A DNA stretch of 63,715 nucleotides, filler included, from Octopus bimaculoides (lineage: Eukaryota): NCBI RefSeq assembly GCF_001194135.2. It is 5 parts of 4 records of this genome, joined end to end, with 100 filler letters (N's around TTAATTAATTAA, not from the genome) between each part and the next. Parts side by side here need not be neighbours in the genome. Positions count along the whole stretch, not along the records: positions 1 to 15,637 come from NC_068997.1; positions 15,738 to 38,177 come from NC_068982.1; positions 38,278 to 58,311 come from NC_068982.1; 2 more parts are not named here. One strand, given 5' to 3'. The position numbers were made by a program, and so were the translations under genes. The notes beneath the pieces were generated by a model. That model was not told the DNA's origin, did no database searches, and saw nothing but the letters and a program-made list of their open reading frames with translations. Shown here piece after piece: positions 12,278-40,295 of the stretch (positions are counted from its first letter, which is position 1; every line of letters begins with the position of its first letter).

Positions 12278-12367
12278 GTGCAGCTGAAGATTGCTCTACA
12301 TTTTATATTTGATGTAATGTTCACATTGCTTAATTAAATGGAGTCACATGAAACGACCGTACTGCAT
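12278..12367 (+). ncRNA. Minimal type I hammerhead motif (Penelope-type), stem II decayed
   Basis: GUGCAG CUGAAGA ... GAAA CGACC GUA CUGCAU, with a 5-6 bp stem I and a near-palindromic stem III. Confidence 0.55.
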
Positions 12368-12716
12368 TAACTTTGGATATCCTTGTTGCTTATTTTGATT
12401 TTAATCACCTTATTTTGAAACTGTATGGATAATACCATACTTAATTCTGGTGCCTAAACATTAAGTAGCATATNNNNNNNNNNNNNNNNNNNNNNNNNNN
12501 NNNNNNNNNNNNNNNNNNNNNNNNNNNNNNNNNNNNNNNNNNNNNNNNNNNNNNNNNNNNNNNNNNNNNNNNNNNNNNNNNNNNNNNNNNNNNNNNNNNN
12601 NNNNNNNNNNNNNNNNNNNNNNNNNNNNNNNNNNNNNNNNNNNNNNNNNNNNNNNNNNNNNNNNNNNNNNNNNNNNNNNNNNNNNNNNNNNATATATATA
12701 TATATATATATATATA

Positions 12717-14830
12717 ATCAGGTTGGTGCAAAAGTAATGGTTGATTTTAAGGTCTCTATTAAAAATAAAAAAGCCCATCATTAAGACACTATTTATTCGT
12801 TAATGTAATTTCTGTTGGTTTCTAGAACTTCATTCCATCTGTCAACAAGCTTATAAATGCCATGCTTGTAAAATTGTTTAGGTTTTGATGCGAAATATGA
12901 ATCCGACTTATTTTCAACCTCTTCCCTTGATGTCAACCTAAGCCCATTCAAATGGGTCTATAGTCCCTGAAACAAGTGATAATCAGAAGGAGCAAGGTCA
13001 GGAAAATATGGAGGATGAAGCAATATTTCCCAACCAAGCTCTTCCAAGAGATCTTTGATCAGTTGAACTGTGTGAGGACGAGTGTTATCATGGTGGAAGA
13101 TGACGCTCTTTCTGTTGACAAAGCAGGGCCACTTTCTGTTCAAAGCTGCTTTCAAACAAAGTCGATCACAGTACAGATTAGCAGTAATTCTTTGATTGTT
13201 GTCTAACAGTTCGTAATGGACAATTCCTTCAGTATCCCACCATACACTCAACATGATCTTCCTTGGATGAAGTCCTCCTCTTGGTTGTTGAACAGATCTT
13301 CCTCCTCGACTGATCCGCAAATGGCAGTGTTTAACGTTATAGTAAAGGATCCACTTCTCATCATCATCATCGTTTAACGTCCGCTTTCCATGCTAGCATG
13401 GATTGGACGATTTGACTGAGGACTGGTGCAACCGGATGGCTACACCAGGCTCCAATCTAATTTGGCAGAGTTTCTACAGCTGGATGCCCTTCCTAACGCT
13501 AACCACTCAGAGAGTGTAGTGGGTGCTTTTACGTGTCACCCGCATGAAAATGGCCACGCTCGAAATGGTGTCTTTTATGTGCCACCCGCACAAGAGCCAG
13601 TCCAGGGGCACTGGCAACGATCTCGCTCGAAANNNNNNNNNNNNNNNNNNNNNNNNNNNNNNNNNNNNNNNNNNNNNNNNNNNNNNNNNNNNNNNNNNNN
13701 NNNNNNNNNNNNNNNNNNNNNNNNNNNNNNNNNNNNNNNNNNNNNNNNNNNNNNNNNNNNNNNNNNNNNNNNNNNNNNNNNNNNNNNNNNNNNNNNNNNN
13801 NNNNNNNNNNNNNNNNNNNNNNNNNNNNNNNNNNNNNNNNNNNNNNNNNNNNNNNNNNNNNNNNNNNNNNNNNNNNNNNNNNNNNNNNNNNNNNNNNNNN
13901 NNNNNNNNNNNNNNNNNNNNNNNNNNNNNNNNNNNNNNNNNNNNNNNNNNNNNNNNNNNNNNNNNNNNNNNNNNNNNNNNNNNNNNNNNNNNNNNNCAGG
14001 TCTTCCTGGGCCTACCTCTTACACGGGTTCCCTCAACTGTTAGGGAGTGGCACTTTTTCACGCAGCTATCCTCATTCATTCTCACGACATGTCCAAACCA
14101 GCGCAATCGTCTCTCTTGCACACCACTACTGACGCTTCTTATGTTCAGCTTTTCTCTCAAGATACTTACACTCTGATGGGTATGCACATTTACATTACAC
14201 ATCCAGCGGAGCATACTGGCTTCATTCCTTGCGAGCTTACGCATGTCCTCAGCAGTCACAGCCCATGTTTCACTGCCATGTAGCATGGCTGTTCATCACC
14301 TGTAACAAATCTTCCAAAAATGGTCCCTTAAGGTGTTGTGAAAGGAATGACTGACAACAAACAATACACTGTTGTAGATTCTCTGGGGACAGTTTGTGCA
14401 GGACCCATTTTCGAACCACTGAAACCTTTCCGATCCTTTTCAGTTGGCGTAGAACAGTTGTATGGGCTACGTTAAACTGTCCTGCAAGTTCTCTACAAGT
14501 AGTGGTTGAATTTTCTGTGACAACAGCTTCCAACACTTTGGAATCAAGTTGTTTTGAACGACCTTCTTTTGGCTCGCCTTCCAAACTCAAATCCCCACTT
14601 CTGAAGCCAGAAAACCATCTCCTGCAACGTTTTTCACTCGCTACATCATCCCCATGAACTCTCTGAAGAAACTTGAACTGCAGTGCTTGCATTGACACCT
14701 TTATGAAACTCAGAGAGTAAGACATGTTTAATGTGATCTTTAGATGGGATGAGCATGGGTGTGAGTATAGCAGAAGATTATGACCAATCAGAATCGGAAT
14801 GAAAATTGTATAAATTACACATTGTGACAT
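12717..14830 (-). mobile_element. Decayed mariner transposon (Hsmar1-like TIR, D,D34D transposase) split by an RTE insertion
   Basis: HTH part RRWFSGFRSGDLSLE..., then VTGDE|KW, MLSVWWD, HHDNTRPH and HPPYFPDLAPSDYHLF. TIR CAGGTTGGTGCAAAAGTAAT at about 12719. Confidence 0.92.
13362..14293 (-). mobile_element. RTE LINE 3' fragment nested inside a mariner
   Basis: Reads MLHGSETWAV...RRLRWFGHVVRM...GRPRKT, followed by the 3'UTR and (GAT)n tail. Mariner coding sequence flanks both sides. Confidence 0.9.
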
Positions 14831-14917
14831 TCTTAAAACATTGCGAGAGGTACAATTTTAAAAGATACTGTCTAAAACTGTTTTCTAAAAAATCGACCAT
14901 TACACTTGCTGATAAAT

Positions 14918-15275
14918 AAAGAGAACAGAAAATGGAGAAGTACTGATGAACAACAATTGACTTCCATTAGTTATTATTTATTAATTCAATGCAAATAGAC
15001 TGCATCCCATCTAACAGCTGTTTCTGCTTCCAATGTAGTATGGTATTGCTATTAATAGGCAAAAATATTAATCATATTTGGTAATAAAACTTTATTCTTC
15101 ACTCTGATGAAGCTCCTTGTTTCAGATCTGTTTTATTACCAAATATGATCAATATTTTTGCATATCAATGGCAACACCATACAACATTAGAAGCAGTGTT
15201 TTTGCTTTGAATTAATAAATAATTGATGTAAGTCGACTGTTGTTCATCAATATTTCTCCATTTTCTGTTTTCTTT
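14918..15275. repeat. Long imperfect inverted repeat (about 170-bp arms, 39-bp spacer) carrying hammerhead half-motifs
   Basis: 14918-15090 is the reverse complement of 15130-15275, except for a deletion of about 24 bp in the right arm. Confidence 0.85.
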
Positions 15276-15348
15276 AAATTTTAATTCTTGATAAACCCAT
15301 GTTTATCCTTGTCTTTACCTATAACTTATGAATAGGTTTGCATATGTA

Positions 15349-37798: not shown

Positions 37799-38302
37799 CA
37801 AGTTTCTTTGATTAAGAATACTTTCTTGTAAAGAAATAGTTATCATCCATAAGCTAAGGAAAACGAATTCGCCAAACTAGAATCACGCAATATTGTAGAA
37901 CTGTCACCACCAACCATTTTTATGTCTTTGATGTCTGTGTTTGGTTTTACATTCTATTTCATACATACACACACACATACAAACATGCATGCATACATAC
38001 ATACATAAATGCATAACTAATATAGTCATACAAACACATGCATAGAGCATACGTGCATGTATGTACACATCCACATGTATGTATACACACATATGTGTAT
38101 GAGTATATATATACATAAATACACACACACACATAAATACACACACATACAGACATATATATATATATATATATATANNNNNNNNNNNNNNNNNNNNNNN
38201 NNNNNNNNNNNNNNNNNNNNNTTAATTAATTAANNNNNNNNNNNNNNNNNNNNNNNNNNNNNNNNNNNNNNNNNNNNAGAGACTTAGAAATATTAATAAC
38301 TC

Positions 38303-38334
<32 letters not shown>

Positions 38335-39240
38335 CTAGCAACTAAGCCCGGTTTCACCAGGTCGGTTTTTATGGTGTGGCTGTAAAACCTATTCTGTGGA
38401 AGCATTCGACTTGATTTGGCACGCTTACGTTAAAAAACAATTTTAGAATGAAATTTTACAATCAAAACTCTAAAAATAACTGACCAACAAGAGAAAAACA
38501 ACCAAGATTTAACCAAGTCAAAAATTAAACCCAAATACTAATCGGAAAAAGATGAACCATCCCACTTCCATTGCGTGCTCACACGCACATACACGCACAC
38601 AAACAAACACATGCACACACACACACACGCCCACATTCATATACCTCTCCTTTTACATATACACACATATATTCACCCAGAGTTGAAACGCTGTTTGATT
38701 TATTTTTTCAGCGTACACTACCAAGTATGACATCAGCCCTTCCTTCCTTATTCATCTATCACCCCTTCCTTTCTCATTCATAAAGTCAAGAGTATTATTA
38801 TAGTAGACCATCTTGATAACCATGGGAGCTATGGAAAAATACAAAGCCCAGCATCTTCACCGGATCATTCTACACATCTGTGTAATTTTTCGCACAACTC
38901 CACTCAGCCATTTGACCGTGCATCCCAAGATAAGAAAGAATCGCCCATGTCAAACTTATATGTATGGATAAACAATTGCAGCATGGAAGGTGTTTATAGG
39001 TCATTTAAAAACACAGAAAAACCGTTAGATTCATTTCAACGGAATTTTGTCAGTGAGCATGTCACGGTTTCAAAGGGATAAACATATTTTGACAAATTTA
39101 ATTTAAATATTGAAATGAGTCTAACGGTGTTTGTGTGTTTTTAAATGATCCATAAACACTTTCCACGCTGCTATCGTTTCTGTTTCATCACACGATCTCA
39201 CATCAAGTCACTTGCAATGTAGGTACATCTCCGTGATATA

Positions 39241-39280
<40 letters not shown>

Positions 39281-40156
39281 NNNNNNNNNNNNNNNNNNNN
39301 NNNNNNNNNNNNNNNNNNNNNNNNNNNNNNNNNNNNNNNNNNNNNNNNNNNNNNNNNNNNNNNNNNNNNNNNNNNNNNNNNNNNNNNNNNNNNNNNNNNN
39401 NNNNNNNNNNNNNNNNNNNNNNNNNNNNNNNNNNNNNNNNNNNNNNNNNNNNNNNNNNNNNNNNNNNNNNNNNNNNNNNNNNNNNNNNNNNNNNNNNNNN
39501 NNNNNNNNNNNNNNNNNNNNNNNNNNNNNNNNNNNNNNNNNNNNNNNNNNNNNNNNNNNNNNNNNNNNNNNNNNNNNNNNNNNNNNNNNNNNNNNNNNNN
39601 NNNNNNNNNNNNNNNNNNNNNNNNNNNNNNNNNNNNNNNNNNNNNNNNNNNNNNNNNNNNNNNNNNNNNNNNNNNNNNNNNNNNNNNNNNNNNNNNNNNN
39701 NNNNNNNNNNNNNNNNNNNNNNNNNNNNNNNNNNNNNNNNNNNNNNNNNNNNNNNNNNNNNNNNNNNNNNNNNNNNNNNNNNNNNNNNNNNNNNNNNNNN
39801 NNNNNNNNNNNNNNNNNNNNNNNNNNNNNNNNNNNNNNNNNNNNNNNNNNNNNNNNNNNNNNNNNNNNNNNNNNNNNNNNNNNNNNNNNNNNNNNNNNNN
39901 NNNNNNNNNNNNNNNNNNNNNNNNNNNNNNNNNNNNNNNNNNNNNNNNNNNNNNNNNNNNNNATATATAGCGATGAGAAAATGGAGGGGGATATGCGGTA
40001 TCCATCGATTTTCAGACAATGTATTCCGTTGATTAATTTGTTTATTTTATAGCTAAAATGACAAAAACCACAATATACAGATGCTTATGACATACCATGT
40101 CATATTAACAATTAAGGTTACAAATATAAAGTACATTTAGCAATTGGAGAATGTAC

Positions 40157-40295
40157 AGGAACTTACAGCTGTTTCGGCCTAGTGTTGGCATGCCCCATTC
40201 TATCTCTATAGCTCCTGTTCACCGGAGTAATTAGCAGATGAAAATGATGTAATGTGGGTACATGCATGATTCGCTAGGTCTCTTCAGAGATTTAC
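40157..40295 (-). ncRNA. Minimal type I hammerhead motif with palindromic stem III
   Basis: CUGAAGA GACCUAG ...about 90 nt... CUAGGCC GAAA CAGCU GUA. Stem II pairs at 6 of 7 positions; stem I is degenerate. Confidence 0.6.

Follow-up and report, generated by a model that had tools for sequence, protein, structure and literature searches.

Hammerhead motifs in a stretch of the Octopus bimaculoides genome: probable truncated ends of Hydra-clade Penelope-like elements and an ORF-less repeat with a predicted permuted ribozyme core

Do scattered hammerhead ribozyme motifs in octopus DNA belong to a system of small, non-coding, retrozyme-like repeats, or are they what is left of larger retroelements? 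The question is raised by a window of 63,715 nucleotides from Octopus bimaculoides (assembly GCF_001194135.2), which is the whole stretch of DNA analyzed here. A first-pass annotation of this window marked hammerhead cores near 12.3, 15.1, 23.4, and 40.2 kb and an orphan 3′ half near 43.5 kb, and it proposed that they form a cephalopod retrozyme-like system. We refer to the repeat families at these sites as F1, F2, F3a, F4, and F5, and to a sixth family, at a site adjoining F3a that had been missed, as F3b. Our interpretation, in which we have good confidence, is that the four marked cores and the missed one are what remains, at the 3′ end, of truncated Hydra-clade Penelope-like elements (PLEs), and that F5 is a repeat without an open reading frame (ORF) that likely relies on borrowed PLE-type enzymes; its hammerhead core is permuted and is predicted to be self-cleaving.

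The arrangement of the sites is itself uninformative. The window joins five separate stretches, and searches of the animal's own genome place the marked sites at three unlinked locations: those at 12.3 and 15.1 kb at C17:0.50 Mb, that at 23.4 kb at C2:15.31 Mb, and those at 40.2 and 43.5 kb at C2:181.2 Mb. Because the locations are unlinked, the 28-kb span within which the motifs had been reported to cluster is a packing artefact with no genomic meaning. Could the motifs themselves be chance matches in AT-rich DNA? We find this scarcely credible. The first-pass annotation had named a motif density no higher than in shuffled sequence as the result that would undo its proposal; a loose hammerhead descriptor instead returned 8 cores in the window against a mean of 2.04 and a maximum of 5 in 100 shuffles, and a descriptor with a strong stem I returned 3 against 0.21 (maximum 1). 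Complete type I cores number three in the window, at 12284 (+), 23454 (−), and 40287 (−). What speaks for chance is that the strictest descriptor, with all three helices in register, gave 0 matches in the window against 0.02 in shuffles, and that the Rfam hammerhead models gave no match in the window at E ≤ 5 and none at gathering score in 18 selected loci. Against it stand the excess over shuffles, both in the window and for the permuted descriptor described below, the family majority sequences, which restore the cores together with palindromic or near-palindromic loops III, and the position of the motifs, which agrees with that of published Hydra hammerheads.

What these motifs are attached to becomes apparent from their relatives elsewhere in the genome. 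Each family search yielded 40 scored places at 78–96% identity, drawn from 527–3519 first-look candidates (figures that are not copy numbers), and 30 loci per family were examined. Copies of F1, F2, F3a, F3b, and F4 are dispersed; they end at a constant 3′ position, at (TA)n, and are truncated to varying extents on the 5′ side, and some carry tails of approximately 20–120 nt past the 3′ end. That the repeats are unrelated to one another was borne out at the DNA level, where the top cross-family blastn match had an E value of 0.13. Longer copies run upstream into an ORF, and in four loci, L276 (F3a), L409 and L410 (F3b), and L373 (F4), it is a single ORF encoding a reverse transcriptase (RT) followed by a C-terminal endonuclease. 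The 545-aa open frame of L276 has RT motifs, a linker, and the endonuclease, with the CxCX5C, CxxC, and CxH motifs, and has 454 homologues at E ≤ 0.001, the top one 50% identical. A Hydra profile was built from 60 of these homologues and two loci. A Hydra endonuclease lies upstream on the same strand in three of five extended F4 loci (L373, L358, and L359), and L373 covers profile positions 4–681 of 704. For F3a, the long copy L188 continues into linker and endonuclease, and a query with the F3a endonuclease returned 150 scored places, with the F3a hammerhead 0.5–1.3 kb downstream on the same strand in 25 of the best 30. L410, with a period of 2.66 kb, and L409, with one of 2.4 kb, are full F3b copies in which pseudo-long terminal repeats (pLTRs) bound the ORF on both sides, and L411 has the endonuclease upstream. 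Linker and endonuclease precede F1 in L183 and, as another such locus at 77%, in L226; the endonuclease precedes F2 in 2 of 15 extended loci (L355 and L366), its C-terminus approximately 1.9 kb upstream. All three cysteine or histidine motifs occur, across several copies, in F1, F3a, F3b, and F4, and the short F2 piece has CxxC only. The type I hammerhead lies in sense orientation near the 3′ end of these families, as is characteristic of the Hydra clade.

Several attempts to name the ORFs by other means were less productive. Pfam gave no match for the Hydra ORFs, and a homologue search using the endonuclease alone found nothing. A search for GIY-YIG families as partner ORFs recovered mainly Poseidon-type elements, which are not the partners of these families. 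Its 112 own-genome matches (L196–L245) include long frames which, where inspected, we take to be Penelope/Poseidon-type, several with an RT upstream. A Neptune-type label was dropped in favor of the published definition of Hydra.

At the sites themselves, the cores reported at 12278, 23391, and 40157 held up. The first is a type I core on the plus strand, with stem I GTGCAG/CTGCAT and a GUA site, and its loop III reads CGACCG in the window copy against the family palindrome CGATCG. The second, on the minus strand, has a GUU site and is accompanied by a short inverted copy. The third, also on the minus strand (40287–40158), is present though its stem I has decayed to 2 contiguous pairs in the window copy. 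The core placed at about 15100 stands only in part: its 5′ half is there, with part of arm II, and its GAAA half has gone with a 24-nt deletion between two GCAG words, where relatives hold that half, and survives in the adjoining inverted copy. In F3b, the majority core is of the U3-A8 type; the window copy has U16.1 changed and is followed, at approximately 23318–23392, by about 25 N-terminal codons of the Hydra ORF. The earlier statement that the window holds no Penelope ORF is therefore correct for RT and endonuclease, for which there was no Hydra-profile match, and incorrect for these codons. F3a (−) and F3b (+) join tail to tail at 23392, where the final 35 nt of F3a are missing and F3b ends about 25 codons into the ORF. 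Elsewhere, L364:645–1389 (−) combines an F2-type 3′ untranslated region (UTR) with a hammerhead end after it that is F4-like (73% identity), and could be a chimera or an intermediate family.

The proposal that all marked sites are non-autonomous retrozymes, yielding small linear or circular RNAs, has to be weighed against this architecture. The upstream sequence is non-coding for 0.5–2.6 kb, and most copies keep an intact core (F1, 23; F2, 14; F3a, 26; and F4, 21 of 30 loci; F3b, 13 of 30), both of which speak for the proposal. However, all four families join a Hydra ORF, and in only 1 of the 150 loci of F1, F2, F3a, F3b, and F4 does a further copy lie within 1.5 kb in the same orientation (spacing, 1.4 kb). 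A 406-bp direct “dimer” of F2 lies around an N gap, has identical scores, and resembles a duplication made in assembly. Tandem arrays of F1–F4 were not seen among the 150 loci; as no genome-wide array scan was made, arrays of other families are possible. Inverted second copies within 1.5 kb are found in 6 (F1), 9 (F2), 8 (F3a), 4 (F3b), and 2 (F4) of 30 loci, counts in which three locus pairs overlap, so that one place is counted twice. Non-LTR retrozymes are short non-coding tandem units, two or more of them with a complete hammerhead, and F1–F4, which are non-tandem and linked to an ORF, are unlike them. The family 3′ UTRs run to approximately 0.35–2.7 kb, so stumps of up to 1 kb without coding sequence are to be expected. 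We consider the reading of all sites as retrozymes very improbable. The first-pass annotation had itself allowed that its hits might simply be the ends of full-length Penelope elements, and since the longer F1–F4 copies run upstream into a Hydra-clade ORF, this is what we find for four sites. That the four marked sites at 12.3, 15.1, 23.4, and 40.2 kb are ordinary ends of Hydra-clade PLEs is, in our view, very highly probable.

Some observations weigh against so firm an assignment. The link of F1 to an ORF rests on two loci in which only linker and endonuclease were seen, and that of F2 on two loci with just the endonuclease C-terminus. The F4 locus with the longest ORF, L373, is interrupted by an N gap. 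In an alignment of 27 F3a hammerheads, 90% of the cells pair, yet two-sided changes are not above those of column shuffles (76 of 500 reach the observed value).

The comparison with published elements favors the Hydra clade. One Hydra element that carries a hammerhead has already been published from octopus, the 2507-bp Hydra-1_Obim, which sits in (TA)n (Craig et al. 2021, PMC8557442). F1–F4 share with the clade as described there the order RT, linker, endonuclease, the CxCX5C linker, the CxxC and CxH motifs around conserved E and N residues, insertion into (TA)n, a type I hammerhead near the 3′ end, inverted 5′ copies, and tails. File S2 of that paper has stems III resembling those of F3a and F3b. 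The likeness to Hydra-1_Obim was judged by eye. The five families are nonetheless distinct from Hydra-1_Obim, as none of six core motifs occurs in the portion of the supplement searched, and several have 3′ UTRs of 1.3–2.7 kb and arms II of 60–105 nt, above the values tabulated for Hydra elements in the part covered. Truncated PLEs were reported to give mostly solo minimal hammerheads and opposite-strand pairs 100–700 bp apart, with a U3-A8 core variant in Schistosoma PLEs (Cervera and de la Pena 2014, PMC4209133). Solo motifs, opposite-strand pairs, palindromic loops III, and the U3-A8 variant all recur in F1–F4; the portion of that paper covered includes no cephalopod among its hammerheads, whereas the families here are from a cephalopod.

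The site at 43.5 kb requires a different explanation. The letters of the reported orphan 3′ half, GAAACGTGTA at 43515–43506 (−), are present, but they are antisense to the element that contains them, because the fixed end and 5′ truncation of F5 point to the plus strand. F5 has a GC content of 0.38, targets (TA)n, and is 5′-truncated like the Hydra-clade families. Its unit starts follow the element's own tail, with a head-to-tail period of 841 nt in L376 and of 861 nt in L378, and a core lies at most 330 nt upstream in 8 of 25 unit starts. The Hydra and Poseidon profiles gave no match in F5, and the longest ATG frame in the two dimers is 124–126 aa. Among 30 loci fetched with the 5′ part of F5, neither an adjoining ORF match (Hydra and Poseidon profiles) nor any other shared upstream sequence was found. 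It is highly probable that F5 is an ORF-less, PLE-type unit. The retrozyme idea thus retains something here, as F5 is ORF-less and head to tail, although its ribozyme core lies on the other strand from the one marked and has a different strand order. One could suppose that F5 is no unit of its own but what truncation left of the 3′ UTR of an autonomous PLE, Naiad or otherwise, given that its fold is the same as that of the published Naiad_Obim 3′ end and that it shares (TA)n targeting and 5′ truncation. With the element's own tail preceding the unit start at a period of 841–861 nt, and 30 loci lacking shared sequence or an ORF match further upstream for those two profiles, we regard this as improbable.

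The core of F5 would be a hammerhead in which the blocks of the catalytic core follow one another in the order S-G-C. On the sense strand, the cleavage block CGTAT-H-TTGTTG is followed by GAA-ATACG and then by CAACAA-CTGATGA. Stems I and III are predicted to form as pseudoknots. An upstream strand would pair separately with the strand before GAAA (helix IIb) and with the strand after CUGAUGA (helix IIa), so that stem II is split around a hairpin. We applied a descriptor of the cores and stems I and III only to 1,505,174 bases of fetched loci, which partly overlap and are enriched for F5. It returned 26 distinct matches, 16 in F5 and 10 elsewhere, against 1, 1, and 1 in three shuffles. Helix IIb, which is absent from the descriptor, pairs at p ≤ 0.025 in 9 of the 10 matches to which the extra-helix test was applied (one F5 and nine others; L213, at a locus edge, was omitted), and its letters differ across five sequence families. 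In families whose stem letters differ, CUGANGA, GAAA, and UH still hold their register relative to stems I and III. F5 and its relative L243 differ by two-sided changes in stems I and III and in P0, a helix beside stem I; such changes also occur within families B and C. We consider it very likely that the permuted, split-stem-II fold of F5 is real. Other folds of F5 fared worse: a type I fold with a UUU site has weak stems and fits only 17 of 42 copies, and a type II fold and a minus-strand fold both fail.

Matches outside F5 include L055 (−) 2625, L242 (+) 2256, and L287 (+) 1198; L062 (+) 714 and L368 (+) 3098; L125 (+) 612; L213 (+) 53; L192 (+) 3354; and L243 (−) 5402. Among them are at least four additional sequence families with S-G-C cores. 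Because these surfaced by chance, as neighbors within the 1.5 Mb fetched, this genome probably contains the fold in many places. The match in L192 (3100–3550) has the same sequence on both sides, like a short tandem unit, but the copies are separated by 10 N's and may result from duplication in the assembly.

Whether such a core cuts itself is less certain than whether it folds. Hammerheads of type SGC (HRIMA-1 and variants) cleave in vitro; they come from metatranscriptomes, with none in the genomes of known organisms in the part of the report covered (Eckert et al. 2023, PMC10085705). F5 resembles them in the order of its blocks, in the short linker from stem I to the strand before GAAA, and in the extra helix beside stem I. 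It differs in that its stem II would be split by an upstream strand rather than being one helix, and in that it sits in an animal retroelement. Upstream units begin 41 nt (L376) and 19 nt (L378) past the predicted cut, and these two cases fit a template cut there. In our view, cleavage by the F5 core is somewhat more probable than its absence. A competing explanation accepts F1–F4 as Hydra ends and F5 as an ORF-less PLE passenger, and holds that the hammerhead-like blocks have lost the ability to cleave or never had it, with the helices serving as a protein-binding signal. It would account for the lack of a clear peak of F5 5′ ends at the predicted cut (one clean join and nine ends at 0 to +20, in loci selected for the cut region), for a helix IIa that reaches p < 0.05 in only 3 of 10 matches, and for cleavage sites that read AUA or AUC, not GUH; the in vitro insertion of a Poseidon element, which did not need cleavage, is also in its favor. 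It leaves aside the conserved letters held in register with stems I and III despite differing stem letters, and a block order that is known to cleave. We consider this explanation unlikely, though well ahead of the other alternatives.

Besides the distribution of 5′ ends and the figures for IIa, other points count against a cleaving, permuted F5. P0 reaches p < 0.05 in 5 of 10 matches, and the p values for the extra helices are uncorrected, from matches that are related within families. The window copy is decayed and was missed by the S-G-C descriptor. An ordinary, undivided stem II could form 4 wobble-rich pairs in F5 (0–2 in families B and D), and the alternative type I fold mentioned above does fit a share of the copies, poor as its stems are. 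No locus with two complete ribozymes in direct tandem was seen among those examined, and no Naiad ORF linked to F5 was found with the Hydra and Poseidon profiles, a Naiad profile not having been run. Contigs of presumed RNA runs cover parts of F4 and F5, with no joints among those listed; contigs cannot reveal ends or circles.

Where F5 may obtain its enzymes is suggested by a third group of PLEs. Naiads target (TA)n and are reported to have no canonical hammerheads, but “core” and “half core” motifs, in the portion of the 2021 paper covered (PMC8557442). By eye, the 3′ ends of Naiad_Obim and Naiad_Ovul given there follow the order of F5, with 5–6 bp each in IIb, P0, III, and I. F5 is unlike the Naiads in having no ORF and no evident sequence likeness to their ends beyond the cores, and the portion covered has no description of a permuted fold in Naiads. 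A partnership with Naiads is suggested by the shared fold and the shared target. Like non-LTR retrozymes (Cervera and de la Pena 2020, PMC7229834; Li, Clavereau and Pollet, bioRxiv 10.64898/2026.07.22.740005, each as far as covered), F5 is non-coding, low in GC, and head to tail, with one core per unit and probable dependence on PLEs. Unlike them, it is 850 nt rather than 150–450 nt long, its core is not of type I, and two complete ribozymes were not seen in any one array. We give about an even chance to the more specific proposal that F5 is a retrozyme-like parasite of Naiads in which a non-circularly permuted hammerhead, its stem II split, cuts the 850-nt unit RNA, this fold being the ribozyme that Naiads reportedly lack. 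The split-stem-II topology was not found in print in the literature searched, nor was a paper on permuted hammerheads in Naiads or on octopus retrozymes, in a search that left most subscription papers and the Repbase and Dfam entries outside. The individual families F1–F5 may be catalogued in Repbase or Dfam.

These observations can be accommodated in one scheme. From published PLE biochemistry, a PLE protein would nick AT-rich DNA, and reverse transcription of F1–F4 would begin just 3′ of the hammerhead and usually abort, leaving copies that keep the ribozyme and lose the ORF. In vitro, the protein of a Poseidon element cuts AT-rich DNA, reverse transcription starts internally on the RNA, at two sites flanking the tail, and hammerhead cleavage required the protein and was dispensable for insertion. 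For F5, cleavage would define a unit-length RNA, which a Naiad-type PLE protein may then copy into (TA)n. The features on which these interpretations are based are collected in Table 1.

Table 1. Coordinates of the repeat copies and the hammerhead elements, as interpreted here, along the window.
Feature	Position	Strand	Remarks
F1, probable 5′-truncated 3′ end of a Hydra-clade PLE (long 3′ UTR and pLTR)	11461..12473	+	by blastn to long copy L183; runs into N gap
F1 type I hammerhead	12278..12367	+	CTGAAGA 12284; GAAA 12350; predicted cut after 12361
F2, inverted 5′-truncated copy	14912..15090	−	has just the hammerhead 3′ half, 15024–15013
F2, direct copy with tail	15091..15340	+	CTGATGA 15104; GAAA half gone by 24-nt deletion at ~15196
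F3b, probable pLTR of a Hydra element, U3-A8 variant core	23126..23392	+	TTGAAAA 23140; GAAA 23185; not flagged in the first-pass annotation
F3a, pLTR stump with type I hammerhead	23392..23490	−	CTGAAGA 23454; GAAA 23416; predicted cut after 23404
F3a, inverted copy	23528..23567	+	N gap interrupts inside core
F4, probable 5′-truncated 3′ end of a Hydra-clade PLE	39968..40793	−	ends in (TA)n
F4 hammerhead	40293–40158	−	arm II ~105 nt; palindromic loop III CAGCTG
F5, probable 5′-truncated copy of an ORF-less 841–861 nt unit joining head to tail	42867..43560	+	
F5 putative hammerhead core, S-G-C order, split stem II	43281..43409	+	predicted cut after 43350
F5 putative upstream strands	IIa′ 43281–43286; IIb′ 43324–43328; P0′ 43330–43336	+	
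F5 putative cleavage block	III′ 43345–43349; I′ 43351–43356	+	
F5 putative G block	43367–43374	+	after IIb 43362–43366; G12 reads A in window copy
F5 putative C block	CTGATGA 43397; IIa 43404–43409	+	CTGATGA, then IIa
Reported orphan 3′ half	43506..43515	−	antisense sequence near F5 3′ end; without 5′ half on this strand

The remainder of the window contains other repeats and fragments. Pfam searches with 18 ORFs from the window gave transposase, PHD, and DUF matches only. Fragments of mariner or Tc1 transposases and a DUF4817 helix-turn-helix fragment lie at 12958–13392, 14270–14857, and 32966–33244. Fragments at 5087–5665, 8487–8870, 13997–14292, and 44143–44740 are presumably like the ORFs of RTE-type long interspersed nuclear elements (LINEs); for the first of these, Pfam yields only a PHD-like finger. 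A single weak match to a Poseidon-type RT profile (E 0.003) is found at 4039–4281 (+). A possible endonuclease remnant at 46177–46660 (−) was set aside, as it is single-copy and matches neither the Hydra nor the Poseidon profile. One high-identity repeat (93–99%) is present in four copies (9312–9596, 13358–13594, 15353–15637, and 19554–19749), three of which give a false match to the hammerhead core; these, at 15416, 19617, and 9533, were rejected as hammerheads because the CTGAGGA-GAAA spacing of 5 nt cannot fit a stem II. A relaxed scan found a further degenerate type I-like core at 22225 (+), with one mismatch and a stem I of 5 bp.

For the octopus genome, these results imply that solitary hammerheads are mostly stumps of Penelope elements, which is known biology, and that their clustering in a packed window carries no information. 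F5 offers a small, ORF-less substrate for testing the mobilization of ribozyme RNAs by Penelope-type enzymes. If F5 cleaves, an S-G-C hammerhead with a split stem II would broaden the topologies of the best-studied small ribozyme and carry them into animal genomes. Such a cleaving core would also account for the “half core” motifs of Naiads and weaken the notion that Naiads spread without hammerheads.

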